Shown: piece after piece, positions 2,240-47,673 of the stretch
How positions within the stretch are numbered: the first letter of the stretch is position 1
Layout of the letters: every line of letters begins with the position of its first letter
From: a virus
Lineage: Duplodnaviria; Caudoviricetes
Virus record (IMG/VR): IMGVR_UViG_3300032231_000005
Coordinates: 1 to 47,757 of that record
Length of the DNA: 47,757 bases
Reading direction: 5' to 3' (one strand)
The notes under the pieces: model-generated
Database searches by the model: none
Told to the model about the DNA's origin: nothing
What the model saw: only the letters and a program-made list of their open reading frames with translations
Position numbers and translations under genes: made by a program

Positions 2240-3670
2240 TCATAATGTGAACGCCTCAAAACTCATTGACCCTGCACGCATAGCGCGGTACATCAACGCC
2301 ACCGCATCAATATAATCATCGTGACCGCCGTCAGGGTGTGTGTACCGCCATACGCCGGATTGTGTTTGCTTGGCAATGAACGACCTGAATTCGTGCTTTT
2401 GCGCTTCGATGTCCATTAACTTTATCTCTCCTGAGTGTAGCGCGTGGTGTAACCCTGTCATCAAATTTGCCTTATCTTTCGATGTGAACACGAAACCAGA
2501 TACACGCGCCGTCGCCTCATGTTCACGCATTACATTATTCAACCCTGCAATGATAGATGTCTGTAACCCTGTGCTATCACCTAACACGCTTAACACGTTC
2601 CATTTTACGCACTCTAGCGCGATACGCCTGTACTGTTCGTCCCAATTCTTTACGTTATTCATAACAAGCGTGGCAACTTGAACGCCGTCGCCTAAACAGC
2701 CTATGGATAACACCGTCGCGTCATTGCTATAGCCAAAGTCCAACCCTGCGACGTATTGCTTACTTTCGTCCGGTTGGCTGGTATTCAACGCGGTATCGAA
2801 AAAGCCCTGTGTGTCACCAAAGAAGCCGTCGCCGGAAACAAGGAAACAACTATGAATGTCTTCGGGATACTCTTGTTTGAACTTAATAGGGTCTTGCTCG
2901 ACACGAAACCGTCGCCATTTAATTTGTTCTAAATCTAAGTTGTGCAATCGAATAAGTTCCGATTCCTCACTATCTTTTAAAATAATAATTTCGCCGTCAT
3001 GATCTAATGGTATACGCAAGTCTGGCTCATCAAACCACCTATAAAAATGCAACTTGTAAAACGGATTGCCATTGTAAGCGTCCATCACCATATTGTAAAA
3101 CTTGCCCTGCGCTCCGTTGGCTGTCGACTCTAGCCATACCTCCCCATGTAACGGCATCGCACCAAAGATAGCCGTCAATACGTCCGCTTCATTCTTCCAG
3201 TACGCAACCTCGCTACCATGAAAGAATGTAACCGTACCCGCCCGGGTGCTTTCAGGGCTACCCGCCGTGAATATTTGATCTTCACTATTGTATAACGGGT
3301 ATGTCATCATACTCGCTGAGGCTTCACCCCTCACGGGTTTAAAACCATCTGGCAATTCATCGTAAAAACGATTGCTGATGCGCCGTAACTTTAGCGTATT
3401 GCCTTTGTCGTTAGCCATTGTCGCTGACAAGCATGATCCTGTGGTTAATAGCCGGAACTTGCGCCCCTGCACATAGGTGGATACCCCGCGCTTACGTGGT
3501 TTGATAACGAGGTTGCGTAACGCCTTATGCTTGTCAATGTCAAGTTGAATAACGTTGTACTCAAATGGCACGATGTTAGTACGCTCATCTTGGATTTTAA
3601 GCAGGTGACGTGCAAACAAGTAATCGCTATTGGCGACTTGGGAGGGCGACGGCATGTTAGCTATCATCAC
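2240..3670 (-). CDS. terL: Terminase large subunit
   Basis: Walker-A-like KPRKRGVST, FHGSEVAYW Walker B, coupling motif ESTANG, nuclease GLDFG...DAT and C-terminal HDDYIDA. Confidence 0.95.
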   Translation of the reverse strand: MMIANMPSPSQVANSDYLFARHLLKIQDERTNIVPFEYNVIQLDIDKHKALRNLVIKPRKRGVSTYVQGRKFRLLTTGSCLSATMANDKGNTLKLRRISNRFYDELPDGFKPVRGEASASMMTYPLYNSEDQIFTAGSPESTRAGTVTFFHGSEVAYWKNEADVLTAIFGAMPLHGEVWLESTANGAQGKFYNMVMDAYNGNPFYKLHFYRWFDEPDLRIPLDHDGEIIILKDSEESELIRLHNLDLEQIKWRRFRVEQDPIKFKQEYPEDIHSCFLVSGDGFFGDTQGFFDTALNTSQPDESKQYVAGLDFGYSNDATVLSIGCLGDGVQVATLVMNNVKNWDEQYRRIALECVKWNVLSVLGDSTGLQTSIIAGLNNVMREHEATARVSGFVFTSKDKANLMTGLHHALHSGEIKLMDIEAQKHEFRSFIAKQTQSGVWRYTHPDGGHDDYIDAVALMYRAMRAGSMSFEAFTL

Positions 3671-4178
3671 GCCTCATCATATCTTCCCAAGTGAATGTTA
3701 CTTCGCCCTCATGCGCCACCTTGTCAGTGAACATGGCGTATGCCTTACCGAGGTGCACCAGTGCTTTCTGCGGGTCGTGTAACTCGAATTCAAATATTTC
3801 AGTCTGGCGCTCTTCACCGTCCTTATCGGTCACAATGGTGATGGTCTGCTTAATCTTTTTTATCAGGTGGGTGATCCCCGCCTCTTTTGCTTTCTTAATA
3901 TCTAAGGTTAGAGTAGCGGGGTCGATGAAGTCGCCTATGTCTCCCCTAGCATGTGCGGACAAGCGTCCTAACACTTCATCACGCGATAATGATTGTCCCC
4001 TTAAGAGTTCGTCAATAGCACTCTGTATCTTATGATTTCTTAAGTTTCCATGACCGATAACTGCTAACGTGTTGTCATCGCCCGCATAACCAGCGCGACG
4101 TGCCGACTCGGTGGCGTTCAATGTCTGTGCATAAGCGTCCACAAATGCTTTTTGTTTGCCTGTTAATTTACTCGCCAT
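3657..4178 (-). CDS. terS: Terminase small subunit
   Basis: LTGKQKAFVDAY..LNATESARRAGY HTH N-terminus typical of TerS; overlaps terL start. Confidence 0.93.
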   Translation of the reverse strand: MASKLTGKQKAFVDAYAQTLNATESARRAGYAGDDNTLAVIGHGNLRNHKIQSAIDELLRGQSLSRDEVLGRLSAHARGDIGDFIDPATLTLDIKKAKEAGITHLIKKIKQTITIVTDKDGEERQTEIFEFELHDPQKALVHLGKAYAMFTDKVAHEGEVTFTWEDMMRRDDS

Positions 4179-4181
4179 AAC

Positions 4182-4436
4182 CTACCCCGTGCTACTACCT
4201 TTTATCTCAACGTCGTACAAGTCCATTGCGTCCCGAAGCGCGTCTAATATAAAGCGGTACTGCTTGAAGTCGCCTGTAACACGCTGAACTCTATATAAAC
4301 CATCGAATTCAATGTCTAAGCGGATGTTGTACTTACGTAGCCTGTCTGCTAAAAAGTGCCACATAATATGGCGTTCGCTAGCATCATTAAACCTACGCTC
4401 TATAACGTTCTCTAATGCTGTTTGCTCATCCCTCAT
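4182..4436 (-). CDS. Hypothetical protein directly upstream of terS
   Basis: 84-aa ORF with SD CAGGTG, stop 3 nt before the terS start. Confidence 0.7.
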   Translation of the reverse strand: MRDEQTALENVIERRFNDASERHIMWHFLADRLRKYNIRLDIEFDGLYRVQRVTGDFKQYRFILDALRDAMDLYDVEIKGSSTG

Positions 4437-4489
4437 ATTTCACCTGCCCTATATTCACTTACAATAATTCACGCCATTCGAGGTTAGCA

Positions 4490-5272
4490 TCAACCATGAT
4501 ATAAACGCATTGAGAAATTGCCGAACACTACGAGGTTGTTATTCGACGCATTAACCGCAGTCAATCTAATATCAGCCCCGACAGGGTATCCGCGTCCATC
4601 TACATAATCAATTAAATCTTTGGGGTCTAGCACCAAATCGTCTTGGCTAGTCCATGACCCCCCATTGTTGCGTACCCTTAACTGTGCCTCTGCCTTGCCC
4701 GTCCCACCACTACGTAACACCTTCCCGCTACATTGATATAATTTAGCATCTGCTATAGTGTCGCCGTTATGGGTTACGGATGGAATTGTATAAATAGCCA
4801 TTCGTGTTTGCCCAGTTGACGGCATTATTTTAGCGACCTCTGTACCGCCAATTGTGATTGATATAGTCCCTTCATTAACACCTGTACTGCCAGCCATAAC
4901 GACAAAAGCACGATAGCTACGATAACCATCTGGGTCAACGGCTACCGCAGTTGTGCCATTCATGTTTGCGGTTGCCATAAATTCGACAAAACTATCATCT
5001 TGCCAAACGACAGCTACTGTTCTAGCACCTGTCCCTAGCAATGTGTCATTAACGTTGTCGGACACAATCTCCAATGCCCCCGCACTTGCAGGGAATGGAT
5101 AGACAAGAACAGTAGCCCCGCCGTCCCATATGTCTGCTGGCGCAGATTCGCTTACCGTACTGTCAACGTCCGTATTACGCCCAAATTTGAATACTGGGGT
5201 GTACCCAATAGGTTTACCCTGTATTAACTCTGTGAGGCTTTGATCTGCCCCGCCAAAACCATCAATTGGCAT
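4490..5272 (-). CDS. Putative virion structural/decoration protein
   Basis: Beta-rich, G/T/A-rich; FKFGRNTDVD...IWDGG...DTLLGTGARTV resembles a recurrent phage structural family. Confidence 0.5.
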   Translation of the reverse strand: MPIDGFGGADQSLTELIQGKPIGYTPVFKFGRNTDVDSTVSESAPADIWDGGATVLVYPFPASAGALEIVSDNVNDTLLGTGARTVAVVWQDDSFVEFMATANMNGTTAVAVDPDGYRSYRAFVVMAGSTGVNEGTISITIGGTEVAKIMPSTGQTRMAIYTIPSVTHNGDTIADAKLYQCSGKVLRSGGTGKAEAQLRVRNNGGSWTSQDDLVLDPKDLIDYVDGRGYPVGADIRLTAVNASNNNLVVFGNFSMRLYHG

Positions 5273-5281
5273 CGCGCCCTC

Positions 5282-5596
5282 CTATTCGTATAATGTAATC
5301 GTTACCGTTGCACTAGCGACATCCGATATAATCTTAAAATTGTTCAGGTTGTTATACCCGTATACATCAATGGTAGCTCCAACCGCGATCACATGCCCTA
5401 ACCCTGACACCGTAGGCGTAGACCCCGTTAACGTGTAACGGCATATTTGCCCTGTGACGGTTAGTGTCATCGCGGTGGCTTTTTTTATTTGGTCAGTTGT
5501 GAAACCGAAATCTGTTAAATCGAAGGCGGTAATACCTAGCGTGGTAGTATGCGAAACATTATCCGAAAACGCTTTGAAGACTTCTACAGCACCCAT
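5282..5596 (-). CDS. Small beta-rich putative structural protein, first gene of late operon
   Basis: RYTLTGSTPT..GH motif seen in small phage virion proteins; SD AGAGG. Confidence 0.45.
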   Translation of the reverse strand: MGAVEVFKAFSDNVSHTTTLGITAFDLTDFGFTTDQIKKATAMTLTVTGQICRYTLTGSTPTVSGLGHVIAVGATIDVYGYNNLNNFKIISDVASATVTITLYE

Positions 5597-5618
5597 AATA
5601 ACCTCTTGCTATATTAAA

Positions 5619-5657
5619 TTACCTTACAGTATACAGTAAGGTAAACAAAAATAGCAA
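5619..5657 (-). promoter_or_regulatory. Putative late promoter with palindromic operator
   Basis: TTGCTA-18-TATACT on minus strand; inverted repeat TTACCTTAC-N8-GTAAGGTAA (5619-5644) centred on the -10. Confidence 0.6.
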
Positions 5658-5746
5658 ACACGCCGTTTGGGTAGCGGTTCGCTATTTTTGCAAGGAAGCC
5701 ATAATGAATGTGCAATCAGTGTACCCTATATCCCAATTTATCGCAA
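5643..5746 (-). ncRNA. Putative small RNA unit B (promoter + anti-RBS segment + terminator)
   Basis: TTGCGA(5746-5741)-17-TACACT(5723-5718); RNA reads ACAUUCAUUAUGGCUUCCUUG then hairpin CAAAAAUAGC...GCUAUUUUUG. Confidence 0.55.
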
Positions 5747-5762
5747 GTTATGGGTGCGCCAT

Positions 5763-5873
5763 AAACGACAATAGACCCCGCGCAATGCAGGGTCTATTGC
5801 CATACAGGTGAAATATGATGAGGGTAATGTACCACCCCTGCCACCATAATACACTGTTTAGATATTATCGCAA
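5763..5873 (-). ncRNA. Putative small RNA unit A (promoter + anti-RBS segment + terminator)
   Basis: TTGCGA(5873-5868)-16-TATTAT; RNA contains CCCUCAUCAUAUUUCACCUG, then hairpin CAAUAGACCC...GGGUCUAUUG (5769-5799). Confidence 0.6.
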
Positions 5874-5881
5874 GCTATCGG

Positions 5882-6271
5882 CTATAACATGCGTAATTGT
5901 TTCATGTATACTTTGTCAGCGTGTCGCAAGGGTTGCTTGTGGATTTTCCCATGACTTGGAACAATAGAACTAAATTCGCGTAATGATCGTTGATTGCAAC
6001 CACTGTCCCACTCATACCCGTTTTCGCTAGGCAGTACCCCCTCTAATGCCTCTATGGCATCCTCCTTTTCCGTGTTGGTTACAATTTTCTTTGCGCCCCC
6101 TCCAGCCCTATCATCATACGTAACCGCGGTAAACCCATATTCAATGATACTTTCGGCACGACCCTTAATCGCATCACGCAAACCCGCCATATCTTCTAGC
6201 CATTGCTTTAATTGCTGTTTGTCGGTGCAATTTTCAATTTGTTCAATTGTTAATTCGATTTTGTCAACCAT
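5882..6271 (-). CDS. Hypothetical protein
   Basis: 129-aa ORF with SD, last gene of the leftward small-gene block. Confidence 0.6.
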   Translation of the reverse strand: MVDKIELTIEQIENCTDKQQLKQWLEDMAGLRDAIKGRAESIIEYGFTAVTYDDRAGGGAKKIVTNTEKEDAIEALEGVLPSENGYEWDSGCNQRSLREFSSIVPSHGKIHKQPLRHADKVYMKQLRML

Positions 6272-6324
6272 CGCTGTCCACCTTCATGTTCAATCTCATT
6301 AACTGGTAACTCGGCTCGTTGCTA

Positions 6325-6531
6325 TCAACCATCTATGCTTAGCCAATTCTCGCAGGCAGACGGCGCAAATTCATCCTCAATACACTGATGATAACGCGCA
6401 ACCGCTTTGTTATATTCACATTCATCGTCACAATCGTTCTCGATAGAGTGTATGGCAAACCAAATGATGACGGCCCAGCCAACAAAAAATAAAGATATCA
6501 TCACTGCATTATACAATTTATCGCTCATCAT
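6325..6531 (-). CDS. Small single-TM, Cys-rich membrane protein
   Basis: Hydrophobic N-terminal helix then CDDEC...C...C. Confidence 0.65.
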   Translation of the reverse strand: MMSDKLYNAVMISLFFVGWAVIIWFAIHSIENDCDDECEYNKAVARYHQCIEDEFAPSACENWLSIDG

Positions 6532-6893
6532 TTATCCACTTTCATCTTGTATTCATGTCTAATACCGTCCCATGACGGCACAGGGTTGTGATAAGCTATC
6601 AATTGCTTACGCCAATTTCTACCCTCAATCAACACATCATAGCAGTAATCAAACATGGCTTCCTCAATATCAATGCCGATATCATCCTTAGATTCGTAGA
6701 AAGCATATTCTGTGAGCGCGTCAAAATACGGGTAGAACCAATGCTGTTTATCAATAGACATATATACCGAGGGCTGGTAATTGATAGACCAATATTCCTC
6801 GCCATCTGGATAGCTGATGTCAATAAGCACAATCCACGCCCCCGACAGCAATTTGTTATACAATTCTTCTAACAAGTCTATCTTGCCCATCAC
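6528..6893 (-). CDS. Hypothetical protein
   Basis: ORF coupled to neighbours by stop/start overlaps. Confidence 0.6.
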   Translation of the reverse strand: MMGKIDLLEELYNKLLSGAWIVLIDISYPDGEEYWSINYQPSVYMSIDKQHWFYPYFDALTEYAFYESKDDIGIDIEEAMFDYCYDVLIEGRNWRKQLIAYHNPVPSWDGIRHEYKMKVDK

Positions 6894-7253
6894 TCACTCA
6901 CTTTCCGCACCTGCGTGCGTATTGTCCGTTTGGATAATCGACACTGATGAAAGTATAGTTGCCAGTAGCCACTTTTTGTCAGCCGTAGCGTCAGCAATCA
7001 CCTTATCGTAATCGTGGAATGTGACGGTGGCAATTTCATTTAACGGCACACATACCGTTTCCCGTACCACGCCACCAGCTTCCCAGCCCCCTGTTTCGAT
7101 GCGTAACTTATTCTGACACTTGTCAAACATGCCAGAACCATCCTCTATGCCCCAAAAACCTTTGGATAAGTCCACCCCATACGCTTCGATCTCAATACGG
7201 TGAATGTGCCTACGGAATCGCTCTAGCCCGTGTACCCTCATTTTAACTTTCAT
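6894..7253 (-). CDS. Hypothetical protein
   Basis: SD AAGGAG, coupled ORF. Confidence 0.6.
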   Translation of the reverse strand: MKVKMRVHGLERFRRHIHRIEIEAYGVDLSKGFWGIEDGSGMFDKCQNKLRIETGGWEAGGVVRETVCVPLNEIATVTFHDYDKVIADATADKKWLLATILSSVSIIQTDNTHAGAESE

Positions 7254-7464
7254 TGCTTCGCTCCTTATTCCCTACTTCGATGACAAAATCATCAACCGAC
7301 AGCGACATATATAGCGGTATGCCCTTGTAATCGGCATAGTACCGCAACAGTCTGCGGTTATAGCGCGATAGCCGGATACAATGTGGCTTAATGTTAAACT
7401 CCGCTAATGACGCTAGTACACGGTTGATGCGCTTCTCTAAGTCGTACCGTTCGGGGCTACGCAC
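7243..7464 (-). CDS. Hypothetical protein
   Basis: Coupled ORF in the leftward cassette block. Confidence 0.5.
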   Translation of the reverse strand: MRSPERYDLEKRINRVLASLAEFNIKPHCIRLSRYNRRLLRYYADYKGIPLYMSLSVDDFVIEVGNKERSNES

Positions 7465-7479
7465 TGGGGTTACTCATTG

Positions 7480-7692
7480 CTAATAATCTCCATTCCACAC
7501 CAGCACAGTATCACTCAGTTCATATTCTCGAACGTCATAAACGACCAACTCATCGCGACCCAAATCGCTTAGGTCAATATCTTTACGGACACGCTTTAAC
7601 GCTGTTTTTTCATTAGGGGCAATCACGACAATGTAGCCACCTAGATAGTGACCTTGCGTTACAACAACATATAGCTTGTCACTCATTGTCAA
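7480..7692 (-). CDS. Hypothetical protein
   Basis: 70-aa ORF typical of small phage proteins. Confidence 0.55.
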   Translation of the reverse strand: MTMSDKLYVVVTQGHYLGGYIVVIAPNEKTALKRVRKDIDLSDLGRDELVVYDVREYELSDTVLVWNGDY

Positions 7693-9027: not shown

Positions 9028-10172
9028 TATATCCCCTTACTTCGTGGTGATTCTACGACTTGCATAACACCGTTGATGATTGCGTAACGAATACGCTCTA
9101 AGGCGGCGGTTGCTTTTCTAACATGGACATCACGTCCATATTTCTCTTTGAATAACGGATATGTAGCCATACTAGCACCGCCACCGAAAACAACCAATTG
9201 ATTCCGCACACCGCCCTGCTGGTCAAATACCGTTGAAATGGCATTCAATAAGCGACTACGCAATTCATCTGCCTTGTCAGCACAATCTAATTTGCGACTA
9301 ATACCGTAAGCGTACCTACCTGTCAGGAGTGCATTAAGCACCAATGAAACATCCATCTCGTTATTGTGTTGGAATAAATCTAAGTTCTCACGCTTGATGT
9401 ATTCATATAGCTCATGATAAATCAAGCCGATGCCGATAGCATATGAGCGTGTGCCACCTTCCATGATCTCCCCATTTTTTACAACGGTTGTATCAAATGT
9501 GGTTGACCCCCCATCAAAAACAATAATTTGTTTCGACAAGTCTAAGCGCCGGTCCTCATTACCATCCTTACGCAAAGCATAAGAATAAAACGCGCCAATA
9601 GGCTCAGGTCTGCATTGCACCTCTGCGTATGAGCGCACCTTGGTAACGCCATGCCAACCCTCTATAGTGATCTCTTGCCCATTCTTCTCAATTAAATCTT
9701 TAATCCGTGGGCGAAAATCAAAATCGCGTGGAGCATGTGTTGCAACGAATTGCAAGCGAAGGCGACGGTACGACTTGTTATGATGATACACAAACTCATT
9801 AAGTGCATATGACAACGCACAAAAATATAGCGCATCAAAGTAACCCTCCACATAACGCTCAGCACCGATTTTAACGGTCAAGCATGAATCGTGATATGTC
9901 GCCACATCACCATAAGCATATAGGTGTTGCTTGTTATCGTGCGTAATCAGGGTATACCCGTGCTTTAGTCTGCCAGCTTCCATATACCGATCAATATCAT
10001 TCACATCCAACACCGCTAACCGATGCTTGAAATGAAAATCAAAGACACGATTGCCTTCGATCTCTAGCCACGGTTTACCGTCACCATTGCCGATGTCACC
10101 ACCGAAGCCACCGAGTGCAATCTTCGCAATCTGTATAACTTTCGAGTGGTCAAAATTAAATAAGTTCGTCAT
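9027..10172 (-). CDS. ParM/StbA-family actin-like ATPase
   Basis: Phosphate-1 GDIGNGDGK, connect-1 PEPIGA, phosphate-2 VFDGGSTTFD, adenosine FGGGAS; likely start MTNLF at 10172 with SD AGAGG. Confidence 0.85.
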   Translation of the reverse strand: MTNLFNFDHSKVIQIAKIALGGFGGDIGNGDGKPWLEIEGNRVFDFHFKHRLAVLDVNDIDRYMEAGRLKHGYTLITHDNKQHLYAYGDVATYHDSCLTVKIGAERYVEGYFDALYFCALSYALNEFVYHHNKSYRRLRLQFVATHAPRDFDFRPRIKDLIEKNGQEITIEGWHGVTKVRSYAEVQCRPEPIGAFYSYALRKDGNEDRRLDLSKQIIVFDGGSTTFDTTVVKNGEIMEGGTRSYAIGIGLIYHELYEYIKRENLDLFQHNNEMDVSLVLNALLTGRYAYGISRKLDCADKADELRSRLLNAISTVFDQQGGVRNQLVVFGGGASMATYPLFKEKYGRDVHVRKATAALERIRYAIINGVMQVVESPRSKGI

Positions 10173-10186
10173 CCTCTTTTCCCTTT

Positions 10187-10238
10187 GTGTACGTTTCGTA
10201 TATGCCATAGTATACAATACGTACACGCCACAGCGCAA
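10187..10238 (-). promoter_or_regulatory. parM promoter with inverted-repeat operator
   Basis: TTGCGC-18-TATACT; 16-bp arms GTGTACGTTTCGTATA (10187-10202) / TATACAATACGTACAC (10211-10226), 2 mismatches. Confidence 0.65.
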
Positions 10239-12017: not shown

Positions 12018-12963
12018 TTGTCGCTCCCTCACTCATCATTTTACCGTCGTAATCGCGCTTAATCTCATCATACAACACTGCCACATCGCCACCTTGCCAA
12101 TCTGCATTTACTCCACACTCGCCAGTCGTACAGCCATGCTCTAATTCATCGTTTATAGCAAACAAAGGTAAGGTGTCCTGTGTTAGTCCGTCGATCTCAG
12201 CGCGTAACGTTTTGAGCGTCTTGCCTTTTGTAACACCCGTGCTAGTATCACGTAAAAAGCCAAACGGTTTGAAGTGGTCTGATTTCCCGTGCATACCTTG
12301 TTCCCACGCCTCGTACTCTGCGAACAAATCAGGCTTATATGTCAGTGTTCGCTTCCAGTCCCTATTACCTTGCTTAACACAAGCCCCCCCACAATTGGCA
12401 TGTTTATACCCCCATGTGTACATTCGTGGTGGTTGCAAATTCATAGCTGATTTGCAGTAATCCTGAGCATCATATACTTTGTACATCAACAAAGGATAGA
12501 ATACGTTGACACCGATTGATTTATAATTGCGGATTGGTGCGCTCAACCGCCCGCGTCGCTTGTCCTTATGATCCATGCCTAGCACCATCACAACGGTATA
12601 ATCCGCACTTAACGCCTTGACATAATCCATAATGGGTTTGATTTTTAATTTGAACGTACACGGCGCAATCCGTTGGTTTGGAATAATGCTTGCATCTTCA
12701 GATACTTGTAATGGCGTTCTACCTTCACACAGTCGAGTGATCGGCACTTGCCAACGTTGCTTTAGATCATTTAAGAATCGGTAATTATCTGCATCCTCGA
12801 CAAGTGTGTCTGCAAACAACATCTCGACTTGCCCTTTGCCGAAGTGCTTTAGCATTAAATCGCCTGCCACCGCGCTAGGCACACCGCTAGACAGCGATAC
12901 CACAAAGCGGACAGGCTTGTGTTCTATCTGTGATGTGTAGTAATCGTGTGTCCAGTGTCTCAT
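12010..12963 (-). CDS. PAPS-reductase-like PP-loop protein with Cys clusters
   Basis: SLSSGVPSA PP-loop, FADT.VED.DNYRF, CTFKLKIKP, HANCGGACVK, C-terminal CTTGEC. Confidence 0.8.
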   Translation of the reverse strand: MRHWTHDYYTSQIEHKPVRFVVSLSSGVPSAVAGDLMLKHFGKGQVEMLFADTLVEDADNYRFLNDLKQRWQVPITRLCEGRTPLQVSEDASIIPNQRIAPCTFKLKIKPIMDYVKALSADYTVVMVLGMDHKDKRRGRLSAPIRNYKSIGVNVFYPLLMYKVYDAQDYCKSAMNLQPPRMYTWGYKHANCGGACVKQGNRDWKRTLTYKPDLFAEYEAWEQGMHGKSDHFKPFGFLRDTSTGVTKGKTLKTLRAEIDGLTQDTLPLFAINDELEHGCTTGECGVNADWQGGDVAVLYDEIKRDYDGKMMSEGATNE

Positions 12964-23108: not shown

Positions 23109-23495
23109 CTAAAATGGGATGTCTTTTTTCTTGCGCGGTAGTTCATTATGATCATCATTGTAATTGCTATTACTATCGCCACGACTGCCAGCGAATGTCC
23201 ACTTATCAACCGTAACCTGTACAGTTGTGCGCTCATTCTCGTTTTTGTCAGTCCATAGTTGTATTTCAGGTTCACCACTGACAATAACGGCTGTCCCTTT
23301 TTTGACATGCTCACTAAATGCTTCGGCACGTTTCCCGAACATTTGAATGCGATACCACGATGCGACCTGATAATCGCCGTAGCCCGTATTGACTGCTAGG
23401 CTAACGGTAGCCCGTGCTGTACCTGTCTGGGTGTACTGTAAATCAACATCCCCGCCCGTATGCCCTGCGAGTGTGATCTGTGCGAAGTTTGGCAT
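23109..23495 (-). CDS. ssb: Single-stranded DNA-binding protein
   Basis: OB fold (ITLAGHTGGD..L.YTQTG...SLAVN...KKGTAVIVSG) and C-terminal DIPF. Confidence 0.95.
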   Translation of the reverse strand: MPNFAQITLAGHTGGDVDLQYTQTGTARATVSLAVNTGYGDYQVASWYRIQMFGKRAEAFSEHVKKGTAVIVSGEPEIQLWTDKNENERTTVQVTVDKWTFAGSRGDSNSNYNDDHNELPRKKKDIPF

Positions 23496-24382
23496 TATTT
23501 AGTCTCCTGTGCTATGTCTAACTTATTGATATTGTAGTATGTAGTCGGGCCGCCGTCTTTCGTGGTGGCTGATTTGACATACACCACAACGCGGGCGTTA
23601 ATCGGTCTGCGTTCCTGTGGTTTAATGTTTAATTGTGTCAATTGTTCAACTACTGTGCTATTTGCATAATTGCTTTGGGTGTCAATGCTCAGTCCATAGG
23701 CGGGGTATTTCGACGGACTACCATTGTAGAACGCATAGAATTGATATTCAGGCTTTCCCGTTTTTTGCGAAAACTTCATTTCAACCCCACTAACGGCAAA
23801 AGCCACAACTTGTTGATGGTACTTTTCGCCTAGTGTAACTTTATCCTCTTTACTAGCAGGGAATGCTAATAGGGGAGTATCACCACTGGCAGACGGTGGG
23901 ATTAAATCAGGTTGTGACTGTTTGCCCTCATTCTGGATTACATCAACATCATCATTGAACTGTTGCCAGTCAGTGTTATTTTGTTGTGTAGGTGGCGAGG
24001 GCTTATCCTCATAACCAAACGCTTGAAAGTACGCACCTAAACCCAACAACACATTGCTGACATGATTAAGCATGTCTTGTGCGCTTGTGCGCTCCGTGAA
24101 TACATTTAGTTCTATCGGCACAATTCGACCATCACAGGGCACATTGATAGCCTCTAAGCGATAGATTGTAACAACCGCTTCATTGTGATTAGGTGATTCG
24201 TACTCATTCCGGCTACCCCATTCTTCTGACAACTCAAAAACGCCCGCCTGCAACGCTTTTACAGCCTCACCATAATGCTCTAATGTTTCAGACAACACGG
24301 CGGGGTTCAACGAGATACCATTACGAATAGACAATCGTGTGCTGTCTTTTTTAAGCGTAATCGTTTCAGTGTTAATCGTCAT
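23495..24382 (-). CDS. Hypothetical protein at the usual recombinase position
   Basis: 295 aa, coupled to ssb, two domains separated by a P/Q-rich linker. Confidence 0.55.
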   Translation of the reverse strand: MTINTETITLKKDSTRLSIRNGISLNPAVLSETLEHYGEAVKALQAGVFELSEEWGSRNEYESPNHNEAVVTIYRLEAINVPCDGRIVPIELNVFTERTSAQDMLNHVSNVLLGLGAYFQAFGYEDKPSPPTQQNNTDWQQFNDDVDVIQNEGKQSQPDLIPPSASGDTPLLAFPASKEDKVTLGEKYHQQVVAFAVSGVEMKFSQKTGKPEYQFYAFYNGSPSKYPAYGLSIDTQSNYANSTVVEQLTQLNIKPQERRPINARVVVYVKSATTKDGGPTTYYNINKLDIAQETK

Positions 24383-26209: not shown

Positions 26210-29200
26210 ATGACAGCACTATTTGACGAGGCACTAAGCGAATTTAATAAAATAAGCTCCAGCACAGAGGGACATTCTGGTACAAGCTACGGGTCATCCA
26301 ACGGTTATGAATTTGTAATCTGGATCGACAACGGGGATGACTATCCCGAACCCGAATCTGACTTAATCACGACAATAGTCGATTATGATGAAACTTTTGA
26401 GAATATGTACAAATTTACCATGACGCTAAACTTTGACACCCCACAACCAGCCACCGCAAGCGACACAGCCGACCCGCCACGCATCACGACAGGTGACACC
26501 GTCACATTAATTGGCGACCCGGTAGAGGGTACAGAGTACCGCGTGCATCTGATATTGCCCAACACCGCTTATATCGTAAATGGTGGCGGTATGAAAAACG
26601 TAGACGCGAGCCGATTACGGCTAGCACAGCCACAGCCACAGTCGACAATCGAAACACTGCAAGCGGAAAATGATGCGCTTAAGGCGAAAGTCGCGGAGCT
26701 GGTGAAAGACTTAAGCAACGCTACTAGTTTTGCAAGTTTCCTTGAATCTCGAATCGAGAAACTAGGGGTTAGAGTATCTGAAATTGAAGAAAAGATAGAC
26801 TGGCGATAACACGCAAAACAAAAGGGCGGTCAACCCACTCACGAGTAACCGCCCAAATTGATCTAACAAGGATATAAGAGGATACCATGAATTTATTGAA
26901 AGTGTCAAAATTAATGTTCTCAAAATATGGCAACACAGGCACAGAAAACACAACGGATGGCACAAAAGAACCGGGGGTACATGACCTCGTTGAGCATAGT
27001 AACGGGGCGCGGGCGATTGTTTGTAATATCGTTGATAATCCCTATTCATTTACAGAAAATCCCAACAAAGTCCTTTATGTTATCGGTGTGAACCTAAATA
27101 AAGAGGGTAAGCCGTGTAGCAAGTTTGGCGACCATTGGGGATTTGATGAAGTAACGCTAATTGCGGAGGTGCAATAATGACAATTTCAATAATAGACATT
27201 GATGGTACAAAACGGCATGTAGATTTACGCAATTGTGTTGAGTATCACACAACAGAAGGCATGGCGGGTAAATGGTTTGTGTATATTCAACCAGTCGGGG
27301 CAAGTGAGGATTTTGATCTTCGGTGGCAGATAACAGAGGAAACAGCAAAAACTCTTGAAGCCTTTTTTTCTGGTTTGTCTGCATACACGTTCGGGGGAGG
27401 GAAACAATAATGACCTACTTGACAGAAGCGGATAAGAACTGGAAGCAAGCGCAAGCGATATTGTTGGGGGTTAATAAACTTTTAAACGGCGCAATCATTA
27501 CCGACACTAACCAGCGAGAATTGTATTATTTAAAATGGTGTTTACGTTGCCTACAATCAGCACACAAACAAGGACTAATCACAACTAAAGACGCTTACAA
27601 CCTCGAGAACAAAGTGGACTGGTACAACTTGCTACTTGCCGAATTAGAGGATGTAATCAATCCAGTGTACACAGTGGCGCAGTACCCCCCGCTAGATGAT
27701 CTAACAGTCGAAGATCATAAGCGCGTAAACTTTGCGGGTATGCTCCGGTGGTGTCACATCGGATACAAGTCGCAGGTTAACAGCCTGCAAGGGTTTATTG
27801 AACTTGCGAAACTGGACGCTGACATTGCACAAGCGAAGCAATCGACGGTCACGAAAGGTAGCCCGTTGGCGAAGATCATTAGCGACCAAAAAAAAACTAA
27901 AGTAGTACCGATACCAGATGGCTTTATGGATACGCCATTTCACGAATACACAATCAGAAGTTTAAGACGTAGACGATAACTTAATTAACTAAGGGAGTTA
28001 GTGATGGAAGACCGATTAGAAGCTGAATTGAAGTATATTCGGAATGTGCTAGATAGCCCTATCGGCAATACGCGAAAATTCATATTAATAAAGGGGCTTT
28101 ATGAGGCTACTGCCAAACACGCTGGTAATTGCGTTGCCGAAAACGCGAAATTACGTAAGCAACTAGAAAAACAGACTGATGACAAAACCCGTGACGACCT
28201 CGACAAACAAGAATGGCGACACGATGAAGACACGCACAACATTGAAGACTGGCTAAACGGCAACTAGAAACCGCACGGGGGCGCGTATTGCACCCCCCTT
28301 AGACAAGGATAACAAGTGATGTTCAAATGGATAATGGATTTAATAAGACCGAAGCCAACTTTTTGGGATACCTATTTTGATAAGTTTATTATGCCTCATT
28401 GGGAACGGGGGCTACGGCATGGTATTCCTGAGGATGAATTGAACGCCATGTTCAAGGACTGTGTAGATAATTCCTATCTTGATGTTCTGCCCGGTATTAG
28501 CTTTAGAGACGCTGTAGACAATCGAATTAATGGCAAGGATAACGAGTGATGAAATGTAAGAAGTGTAAGCAAGCAATGCGAAACGACGGGAAGCAGGCAA
28601 CCGCTTGGAATCAAGTAGCTGGCAAGTTTGTGCCAACCGCTTGGAGCGAGGTCATTACGTGCGATAACAAGCGATGCACGATGTACAATTGCACGTTCAC
28701 AAACACGAATTATGGCAAGGTTGACGTAAGTAAATATCAGGAGCGCGAATGATGGGAAAGCGCAAACTTAAAAGCGAGTTTTCAACACAGTTGCAATCGG
28801 TGTCAAATCCTAACGTGACATTTGAATTTGCGATCCGTTACGATAACTATAGTGAAGAGTGGGAGTGGAAATCTATCGTTACGGACAACGGAGAAATCAT
28901 ACGTGAGATTGAAGGGCTTACATCGGTGTACGATATAGCCGTGTCAAAGATGCTTAACGTTATAAGCATTTATGGGTGGGAGTAGGCGTGATGCGATCAC
29001 GGGTCTATGAACATGACTACATAGACCCCAACTTCTAGGAAACTATAATAAAGAAAGCGAGGGCAAGTGATGAGTGATAACGACATTAACAAGTTAGAGG
29101 AAATACAGGCGATACTTGAGACTTCCGACAGCGAGGGGAAGAAGCTGACACAAATTGAGGCGTTGTTAAGCAAGCGGGGGGCGTTGTGTGAGTGTGATGG

Positions 29201-39272: not shown

Positions 39273-39804
39273 AGATGCGAAGCTGATTTACAACTTCCTC
39301 CTGTGTCACTGGCAACAGCTTTGTAATGTAGCCATCTATAATCATTTCATCGTCAGCGTTTAACGCGCAATAATAAACGGCGATTTCATAATCGTCGTCT
39401 GGTAACTCGCTACCGTATTCCTTCAAGAATGCGATTTTGTCAGCGAGGTATTCAATTAGCCCCTCACTATCGAAGTCGGGGAATGTGACATATTGATTGT
39501 AGAGAATGCGCTTGCTATCCCGTGACCGTTGACTCTCAACACGCTTGGCCTCAATTAAGTATTCAGGGTCATTGGGGTTCTCATATTCAGTTTCACCCAT
39601 AGCGAATTGCATTTTCGTTTTGTCATCAGGGTCAACAGCCACAATCGGCACGTCGGGGTCGGGATATGTTTCCTTTAGCCGTTCTTGGATTGCGTATAAA
39701 GCGCGAACAGGGATAGGGGTAATGTGTACCCTTATCCCTGTGTACTTGGTTGTGTATTCAATCACACCGCGATTAGGTGCGTTACCTAGTGATACATTAC
39801 TCAT
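39196..39804 (-). CDS. Tail assembly chaperone (G-like)
   Basis: Lies between tail tube and tape measure; acidic; NPNDPEY motif. Confidence 0.75.
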   Translation of the reverse strand: MSNVSLGNAPNRGVIEYTTKYTGIRVHITPIPVRALYAIQERLKETYPDPDVPIVAVDPDDKTKMQFAMGETEYENPNDPEYLIEAKRVESQRSRDSKRILYNQYVTFPDFDSEGLIEYLADKIAFLKEYGSELPDDDYEIAVYYCALNADDEMIIDGYITKLLPVTQEEVVNQLRIFRPALQRQIGSRHNKDRGSSNVQKG

Positions 39805-39818
39805 ATTTTCACCTTTGC

Positions 39819-46716: not shown

Positions 46717-46830
46717 TAGCGTTAATCCATCGTTGTCTGATAAACTATCGTTAGCGATTGCCTTACGAATCGCTTATTCACTTAAAGCCTGTTGATAGCG
46801 GGCTTTTCGTGTTTATTGATATTGCTATTA

Positions 46831-46859
46831 ATTCTAAAGCATAATTACGATTTAGTCAA
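46831..46859 (-). promoter_or_regulatory. Capsid operon promoter
   Basis: TTGACT-17-TAGAAT followed by a ~110-nt leader with two hairpins. Confidence 0.65.
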
Positions 46860-46866
46860 TTTTGCG

Positions 46867-47673
46867 CTAAAAGCGATCATAGATAGACATCTCTATGAGC
46901 TTGTGTTCTGCATTTTTGATTTCCTTTGCCAGTGTTGTGATATGCTTAATCCATAAATCACCCTCTTTTACGATTGCTATCACAAACGCTTGACCTAAAG
47001 CATAAAGATGTCTGCCTTCATACTTAATCATGAATTCAACACCTTCGGCATCCAGCGTTAATTCACCAAATTCATTGTCTACAATTCTACCAATAAGATA
47101 CAATCTACTTTCATTCATCACCATCTAGCTCCTTATACACTTCCCACAGCTTCATATAAGCGTTCTCTAGCCACAATGTGTACGCTTCCAGTGTGGTGTT
47201 ATCCATGCCGTCTTTACTTACACGCATGTTATGATGCACAACAAAGTGATTGGCGTATGCCAGCCCGTCTAATAATGAACTATCGTCCAAAACGTATCCC
47301 TCTATTTTGTGTGGGTTGCCGTTAGTGTCAAATACTTTGGGAATTTTCGGGTTATTCATTTCCTACGCCTTTCGGTATTAGCCTGCTTTTGCCACAATAA
47401 TCACTCCGACCCCTGAGCATCAATTAAATGCACATTGTCGTCGGCATCGACAATTACTTCACTAGCGACAAGCGTAAATGTTTCGGCTTCTCTATACTCG
47501 TTATCCCAATCCCAAAACACAAAGGCTTTTTTCATCGCGTCAAAACTATCGAAGAAAATCGGGGGCGTGTCTTCGGATATGTTTATTGCATATCGACCAT
47601 GTGCCATTTTAAAAACGCGAAACGTGCTTATACTACCTACGTATGTGTATATTTTATCCATTGTGATTGCCAC
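46867..47673 (-). CDS. Three small hypothetical proteins between portal and capsid (46867..47124, 47111..47359, 47401..47673)
   Basis: SD-led ORFs; two share a repeated upstream leader. Confidence 0.6.

Follow-up and report, generated by a model that had tools for sequence, protein, structure and literature searches.

Two consecutive minus-strand promoter–hairpin units ahead of the late genes of an uncultured phage, and the small RNAs with anti-start segments predicted from them

In an uncultured sediment phage, the gap that separates early from late genes contains two consecutive promoter-plus-hairpin units that are a real feature of the minus-strand sequence. The proposal that these units encode small RNAs, each with a segment antisense to a Shine–Dalgarno sequence (anti-SD) and a start codon (anti-AUG), is well supported at the sequence level. 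What is new is the fit of the first of these segments, guide 1, to the phage's own late genes, which predicts an off-switch acting at a distance on packaging and tail genes. In kind, the predicted RNAs are known: they would work like a trans-acting translation blocker, and they belong to no Rfam family and are not of the AsxR/AgvB type. All of this is read from the sequence of a single genome.

Promoters, hairpins, and guides in the early–late gap

The window, that is, the whole stretch of DNA analyzed, is one virus record of 47,757 bases with 45% GC. It carries the gene set of a tailed phage, including terminases, portal, capsid, tape measure, primase-helicase, SSB, DNA methyltransferase, and two HTH regulators. 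A ParM-like gene, scoring below the family cut-off, is present and no match to a tyrosine integrase was found in the window; a plasmid-type prophage is therefore possible, the record perhaps being incomplete. Close relatives were not found, the best terminase homologues being 42 to 43% identical. Since 7 of the first 10 genome loci with related terminases came from Chloroflexota or Anaerolineae assemblies, the host phylum is likely Chloroflexota. The portal protein, at least 747 residues long, is a fusion whose linker is acidic and whose C terminus carries a Cys/His domain, and we take this fusion to be MuF-like; in one relative (L099), a 2H-phosphoesterase-like domain lies within the portal protein.

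None of 50,697 phage records proved to be a relative at the DNA level, and a comparison of the gap DNA with 10 related virus records gave two chance matches only (E above 0.1). The flanking genes returned no loci from IMG/VR; the 104-aa gene has no homologue, and the 260-aa gene has relatives at 32 to 51% identity only. Searching 401 Anaerolineae-class genomes for a prophage or CRISPR spacer gave four weak matches, of which the 32-nt one lies outside any repeat array. A second assembly, maybe of the same sample, shows no differences over positions 3500 to 7500, which checks the assembly and adds no independent support. Elsewhere in the window, upstream of the capsid gene, a lower-depth second contig (run X1) has 346 other bases in place of the 251 at 46864–47116, with a joint side of just 24 bases; this replacement stems either from an allelic variant within the population or from a different organism.

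The units are located in a 285-bp gap (5597–5881) that is bordered by the last of the early genes and the first of the late genes, two minus-strand genes. An earlier sequence-only reading had described two consecutive minus-strand units at this place, with a common −35 context and a separate −10 each, and this layout was recovered (Table 1). The sequence CTTGCGATAA occurs exactly twice in the 47.8-kb window (5865–5874 and 5738–5747), 127 bp apart and both times in the gap, and each copy provides the −35 of a promoter-like site (P1 and P2). The weaknesses of P1 are its 16-nt spacer and a −35 that matches at four of six positions. Of 11 sites with a TTGC-type −35, 8 are intergenic, five of these outside this gap, with gaps making up 7% of the window and with a −10 set that was picked after these sites had been seen.

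The units had also been placed upstream of the late promoter, and a third promoter-like site, P3, indeed precedes the first late gene. A 26-bp near-palindrome (5619–5644) is centered on the P3 −10 and forms the core of a 52-bp imperfect palindrome (5606–5657); a single mismatch in this core leaves the −10 intact on the minus strand only, and the palindrome may be operator-like. On the plus strand, an 11/12 promoter match at 5266–5294 points across the first late gene, in antisense, toward hairpin 2. It could possibly yield an anti-late RNA of about 390 nt ending at this hairpin, one such match being within chance.

Table 1. Positions of predicted elements, frames, and genes in the window
Feature	Position	Strand	Remarks
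Promoter-like site P1	5846–5874	−	TTGCGA-16-TATTAT; −10 at 5851–5846
Promoter-like site P2	5718–5747	−	TTGCGA-17-TACACT; −10 at 5723–5718
Promoter-like site P3	5619–5657 (motif 5657–5628)	−	TTGCTA-18-TATACT; for first late genes
Predicted small RNA 1	5763–5840	−	about 76 nt; ends placed from promoter and hairpin
Predicted small RNA 2	5641–5712	−	about 72 nt; predicted ends
Guide 1	5803–5838	−	6-bp 5′ hairpin (5838–5821), then unpaired anti-AUG/anti-SD seed (5821–5803)
Guide 2	5690–5712	−	anti-AUG/anti-SD segment
Hairpin 1	5765–5803	−	17 bp, 3 G-U pairs, weak U tail
Hairpin 2	5645–5691	−	19 bp, 3 G-U pairs, A-tract/U-tract base
ORF A	5704–5811	+	35 aa; judged non-coding
ORF B	5815–5967	+	50 aa; 5 Cys and a single hydrophobic stretch; probably non-coding
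First late gene start	5585–5611	−	104 aa (5282–5596); predicted cis masking by guide 2 in read-through transcripts
Best predicted RNA 1 target	4433–4446	−	SD and start codon of 84-aa gene (4182–4436); 14/14 match
Predicted RNA 1 target, large terminase (terL) start region	3660–3690	−	11-nt exact match 3672–3682; longer bulged duplex
Predicted RNA 1 target, start of 202-aa gene ahead of tape-measure gene	39789–39814	−	two helices, 12–13 bp
Terminases	2240–4178		
Portal	3–2243	−	runs off left end of window

As the sequence-only reading had proposed, each unit has its own hairpin. The minus-strand folds of RNA 1 (−35.4 kcal/mol, z = −5.4) and RNA 2 (−26.6 kcal/mol, z = −6.9) were equaled by none of 200 shuffles each, whereas the plus-strand folds of the two units gave z values of −2.3 and −1.1. 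The three stems contain eight G-U pairs on the minus strand versus none on the plus strand, which fits minus-strand RNA hairpins and not a DNA palindrome. Hairpin 1 is likely a stabilizer or leaky terminator, and hairpin 2 is intrinsic-terminator-like and possibly bidirectional; a terminator scan called neither of these main hairpins on the minus strand. At the level of sequence only, both small RNAs combine a promoter and a 3′ hairpin in gene-free DNA. A search of Rfam 15 at the gathering score, including the c4 antisense RNA, returned no match in the window (best local E of 2.2). The hairpin of another gap (28986–29066) carries the same 8-bp arms as hairpin 1 in reversed order.

The segments between promoter and hairpin had been read on the plus strand as an SD sequence followed by ATG. 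Both guides show this, and a strong SD plus ATG on the non-coding strand occurs in only 2 of 1424 control windows of 30 nt. The claim that these 5′ segments are single-stranded was borne out in part: pairing probabilities leave a 17-nt seed of guide 1 unpaired just ahead of the main hairpin, but a small hairpin at the 5′ end precedes the seed.

The description of the region as a modular array, in which guides would be exchanged on a conserved scaffold of promoter and terminator, was not supported. There are two units only, and the promoter alone is common to both. The full units are slightly more alike than shuffles (16/1000) because of the promoter, and their transcribed parts are no more alike than shuffles (276/1000). 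No guide or CRISPR-like array of at least three evenly spaced repeats was found, just a 17-nt two-copy promoter repeat at a spacing of 127. In the comparison with related phages that had been suggested, no relative was close enough to show guide exchange or a joint change of guide and target.

Predicted pairing with the phage's own gene starts

The sequence-only reading had proposed trans-acting translation blockers and had named no targets; the late-gene targets of unit 1 (Table 1) are an addition of the present analysis. The seed of RNA 1 is accessible and complementary to a distant translation start, that of the gene starting at 4436. This 84-aa gene lies three bases ahead of the small terminase gene; no family was found for its protein, and a structure-atlas look-up gave it no name. 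The 202-aa gene is, judging from its position, probably a tail assembly chaperone gene.

By duplex energy, the top three of 85 ORF starts for guide 1 are late genes (4436, terL, and 39804), and the sum of these three was reached by 0 of 200 shuffles. The terL start is the best non-self duplex among 4772 genome windows. With RNA structure included, the same three starts rank at the top of 81. Pairing with the 4436 start (−22.6) is then better than with all 1379 foreign starts, and the values for terL and 39804 are each equaled by 2 of the 1379. When foreign starts were used as decoy guides, a 14-nt match occurred in 4 of 1761 and the top-three sum was reached by 0 of 120. Since foreign decoys are rarely as good, guide 1 is written in the style of the phage's own gene starts.

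Decoys made from the phage's own starts behave differently. When antisense copies of own starts were placed on the same hairpin, 34 of 81 equaled guide 1 in pairing with three further own starts; in plain duplex energy, 4 of 80 (40-nt guide) or 7 of 80 (34-nt core) are as good. Own-start decoys are often as good because the phage reuses start sequences, 19 of 80 own starts sharing at least 12 nt with another. The repetitive gene starts explain the multi-target pairing, which is thus no separate proof of selection. For an unrelated control unit (26878), 11 own starts fall under the foreign first percentile, compared with three and four for the guides. Taken over all starts, RNA 1 has no preference for late genes (p = 0.53). 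We favor the view that guide 1 is self-directed, the targets being predicted and the own genes that matter not being singled out.

A survey of 124 loci for gap DNA that matches gene starts exactly in antisense, over at least 11 nt, gave 13 rows, with the window counted twice (as WIN and L008). The 14-nt match of the window ties with one A-rich match in L021. We also observed that unrelated small genes have start sequences of 16 to 22 nt in common (18516/28546, 19068/28316, 7253/7911, 12963/11751, and 47359/47673), some on opposite strands. This suggests cassette exchange at gene junctions, from which inverted guides could arise.

Guide 2 pairs best with early starts, namely 13887 (methyltransferase), 25232, and 24382, and early starts are better than late ones (p = 0.03). 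The gene at 23495–24382 was left unnamed by the structure-atlas look-up. The fit is not better than that of foreign decoys (13/120) or own decoys (27/80), and by these comparisons guide 2 has no distinct predicted target. Of the proposed trans-acting blockers, the one from unit 1 is supported, with late genes of the phage itself as candidate targets. In cis, the unpaired probability of the 5596 start is 0.16 in the transcript that reads through hairpin 2 versus 0.56 in the P3 transcript, and only 2 of 300 guide shuffles gave a value as low.

Recurrence in other phages and relation to known RNAs

Among the terminase relatives, a strong anti-SD/anti-AUG segment is present in 4 of 47 promoter-plus-hairpin units (L071, L151, L168, and L265) versus 33 of 2676 gap windows, with an SD list that was extended once these units were known. 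The frames opposite the L071 and L151 units span one to four codons, which means that there is no gene there. A tandem pair was seen neither in 15 related virus records nor in any of the four anti-start units. An initial loose hairpin scan, which flagged 99 of 485 gaps, proved too permissive to be more than a lead.

As a prospective test, IMG/VR was then scanned for a pattern of promoter, anti-AUG, and anti-SD, using a pattern with a scrambled anti-AUG as control; the first 120 or so stretches were taken per pattern, from 32 of 64 (motif) and 22 of 64 (control) parts. Without the hairpin, the raw motif of promoter and anti-start is not enriched (about 250 versus about 350 control stretches). 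Among the matches listed, 20 of 85 usable unique motif matches are followed by a hairpin, compared with 2 of 73 control matches; when opposite frames of at least 45 codons are dropped, the count is 15 of 85 versus 2 of 73 (Fisher p = 0.0035). Some of the matches are from related phages. The opposite frames comprise at most 14 codons in 9 of the 15 units and 27 to 34 codons, maybe small genes, in five. The own-start test covered 14 of the 15 records (a 227-kb record was left out), and a match above the null was seen in three of these 14 phages, none longer than 11 nt. Rfam gave no match in 19 analogue loci. The class looks real from these scans, appears to be mostly generic anti-SD, and has the 14-nt self-match of unit 1 as the strongest case seen.

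Some of the individual loci deserve mention in their own right. In L099, the capsid gene is preceded by a promoter-leader-terminator (10026–10197) that pairs with the initial codons of the HNH gene upstream, a pairing that 0 of 498 foreign starts matched (1 of 200 using a shorter window). In L151 (11070–11260), the anti-start unit is followed by tRNA-like stems with another terminator and then by the capsid gene; ARAGORN and Rfam call nothing in this stretch. The related phages L303 and L349 have an identical anti-AUG/anti-SD segment, the next hairpin differing at paired positions, and no own target was found in either. The guide at 12510–12617 of L071 (record G406) pairs with two small genes that have one upstream leader in common; these genes rank second and third of 33 own starts, and 2 and 8 of 700 foreign starts are as good.

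The P4 CI RNA was compared alongside the c4 RNA of phage P1, and c4 is the closest known system in logic. According to the available part of the source, c4 of P1 and P7 is a trans-acting repressor of Ant synthesis (PMC8546580). Like the RNAs predicted here, it is a phage RNA of about 77 nt that acts in trans on the phage's own genes, and P1 is a plasmid prophage, as we infer for the present phage. The same text describes c4 as controlling an antirepressor and as being processed, whereas the targets predicted here are packaging and tail genes at their starts, both RNAs have separate promoters, and no Rfam family matches.

Closest in purpose are Sar of P22, aQ and OOP of lambda, and STnc6030 of BTP1. 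Together with PAK_P4as15, these are described in the accessible text of PMC12197685 as antisense RNAs that are each tied to one gene, and they resemble the present RNAs in being phage RNAs that restrain lytic or late functions; STnc6030 targets the tailspike mRNA and gives superinfection exclusion. Unlike these antisense RNAs, the RNAs predicted here would pair imperfectly, at distances of 1.4, 2.1, and 34 kb, and with several genes.

The known model for swappable guides is that of the anti-sRNAs AsxR and AgvB of EHEC prophages, which the available part of PMC4104026 presents as RNAs of 51 to 60 nt encoded close to the late promoter. Their 5′ ends vary, a 3′ part of about 42 nt is conserved, and they are Hfq-binding mRNA mimics that act as sponges of host sRNAs. 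In the present units, the 3′ parts differ, without a conserved scaffold of this type by the shuffle comparison of the transcribed parts (276/1000), and the 5′ ends are antisense to mRNA starts. Hfq exceeded the Pfam cut-off in none of 41 Anaerolineae-class genomes, with three weak matches, the host class itself being a prediction. PreS of lambda is said to be an Hfq-dependent trans-acting phage sRNA that promotes replication. VpdS of VP882 likewise is a phage-encoded trans-acting base-pairing RNA, but its type is, as far as the available text goes, mostly host-targeted, Hfq-dependent, and engaged in promoting replication and not in holding back packaging (PMC12197685). The same text has the known trans-acting phage RNAs relying on Hfq or acting on regulators. 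In the literature searched, which included few subscription papers and no supplements, no phage RNA was described as pairing in trans with starts of a terminase module, and nothing relevant was found on phage small RNAs in Chloroflexota.

Proposed mechanism and alternative explanations

The mechanism that we propose, and to which we give an even chance of being right, is that two stand-alone RNAs block translation initiation and thereby keep morphogenesis off in the carrier state or early infection. Host RNA polymerase would fire P1 and P2 outside the late phase. The RNAs would be ended by hairpin 2 and, more leakily, by hairpin 1, and early transcripts arriving from upstream would be stopped as well. 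The unpaired seed of RNA 1 would nucleate on the start of the 84-aa gene, at the head of the closely coupled terminase–portal run, with terL and the tail chaperone gene as second sites. RNA 2 would pair more loosely with a family of early starts (methyltransferase 13887 and genes 24382 and 25232), and its guide would, in read-through transcripts, mask the first late gene in cis. Pairing is probably Hfq-independent. Such control would likely serve to prevent production of packaging and tail proteins in a plasmid-type prophage state or early in infection, and the RNAs would also strike a superinfecting close relative.

The RNAs could instead be trans-acting blockers whose real targets are genes of the host or of competing phages, the own fit then reflecting a common style of ribosome sites. 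We regard this as unlikely, though it accounts well for guide 2, which has no distinct own target, and for the wider class, in which 11 of 14 phages have no own-genome match. By extrapolation from the 2 of 1379 foreign starts, a host of some 5000 genes would have about seven starts that pair as well as terL, enough for several equally good sites. This explanation is at odds with guide 1, which fits its own phage far better than foreign starts do (4/1761 and 0/120). In addition, a search with 19-nt guide patterns in 301 Anaerolineae-class genomes gave no match with fewer than two mismatches, and the 13 and 7 matches with two mismatches point to no recurring gene; the test is weak, the host class used being a prediction.

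We consider it rather improbable that the units are promoter/terminator leaders of the late operon, combined with terminators of the early operon, so that the short RNAs are by-products and anti-RBS action is confined to cis, by guide 2 on the first late gene. Late leaders of this style are known from pR′/tR′ of lambda. The units do lie directly ahead of the late genes, a promoter, short leader, and hairpin also occur upstream of the capsid gene in the window (46717–46866) and in the relatives L071, L099, and L151, and the cis masking by guide 2 speaks for such a role. However, a leader explains neither why the anti-SD/anti-AUG seed in unit 1 is left unpaired between two hairpins nor why it matches 14 nt at a distance of 1.4 kb, the late genes are served by a separate promoter-like site, P3, that follows hairpin 2, and no antiterminator was recognized among the 85 ORFs.

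More doubtful still is the possibility that the frames opposite the units, ORF A and ORF B, are real genes and that the units are cis-antisense RNAs of the SymR/symE type, with the promoter inside an ORF. The geometry equals that of symE/SymR of E. coli, where, in the available part of the source, a 77-nt RNA lies over the SD and start codon and the order is promoter, anti-start segment, and terminator (PMC1891008). Both frames are open, with chance frequencies of 0.155 (A) and 0.054 (B) in shuffles and 0.23 and 0.13 among antisense ATGs, the stop of ORF A falls inside the SD of ORF B, and real phage starts do have sequence in common with other starts. A type I toxin that stabilizes the plasmid prophage is kept as a possibility because ORF B has one hydrophobic stretch (KD17 of 1.92, compared with 0.74 for ORF A); the ParM-like gene and the missing integrase match would suit such a role.

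SymR, however, stands opposite a real gene in that account (PMC1891008), whereas ORF A and ORF B score as non-coding, and so the alternative of real plus-strand mini-ORFs, which the sequence-only reading had named among those that would overturn it, did not gain ground. The codon score of ORF B lies under all 253 length-matched coding windows and that of ORF A at 11 of 389; in synonymous usage alone, both fall under all 44 small genes and inside the range of antisense shadow frames. A homologue search with ORF B and Pfam searches with both ORFs gave nothing. These results reveal no real gene on the opposite strand, with the reservation that small orphan genes can escape codon, homology, and Pfam tests. 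Furthermore, no good plus-strand promoter adjoins the ORFs, hairpin 2, read on the plus strand, is a terminator placed immediately upstream of the ORF A SD, and units of the same build elsewhere often face the very short frames described above.

Finally, the SD-plus-ATG look-alikes can hardly be functionless products of chance or relics of inverted gene starts: recombination could leave an inverted copy, given that gene starts are repeated in many places in this phage, and the raw motif is not enriched, but two consecutive cases against the rare background in control windows, each between a promoter and a hairpin, and the enrichment of the full build in other phages argue against this.

If the proposed mechanism is true, a stand-alone RNA pair acting on distant starts of the terminase module and tail genes would be a new layer of lytic-gene control, and the named RNA–start pairings offer concrete self-targets that can be tested with reporters. 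A broader and more tentative possibility is that phages keep a kit of minimal Hfq-independent RNAs, built from a host promoter, an inverted own gene start, and a hairpin. Two of these would be stacked here, in a late and an early dialect, and would silence whole lytic modules as well as superinfecting kin; the build would recur, unannotated, in many uncultured phages. The motif scan suggests such a wider unannotated class of phage RNAs, one that may be found by a simple rule.
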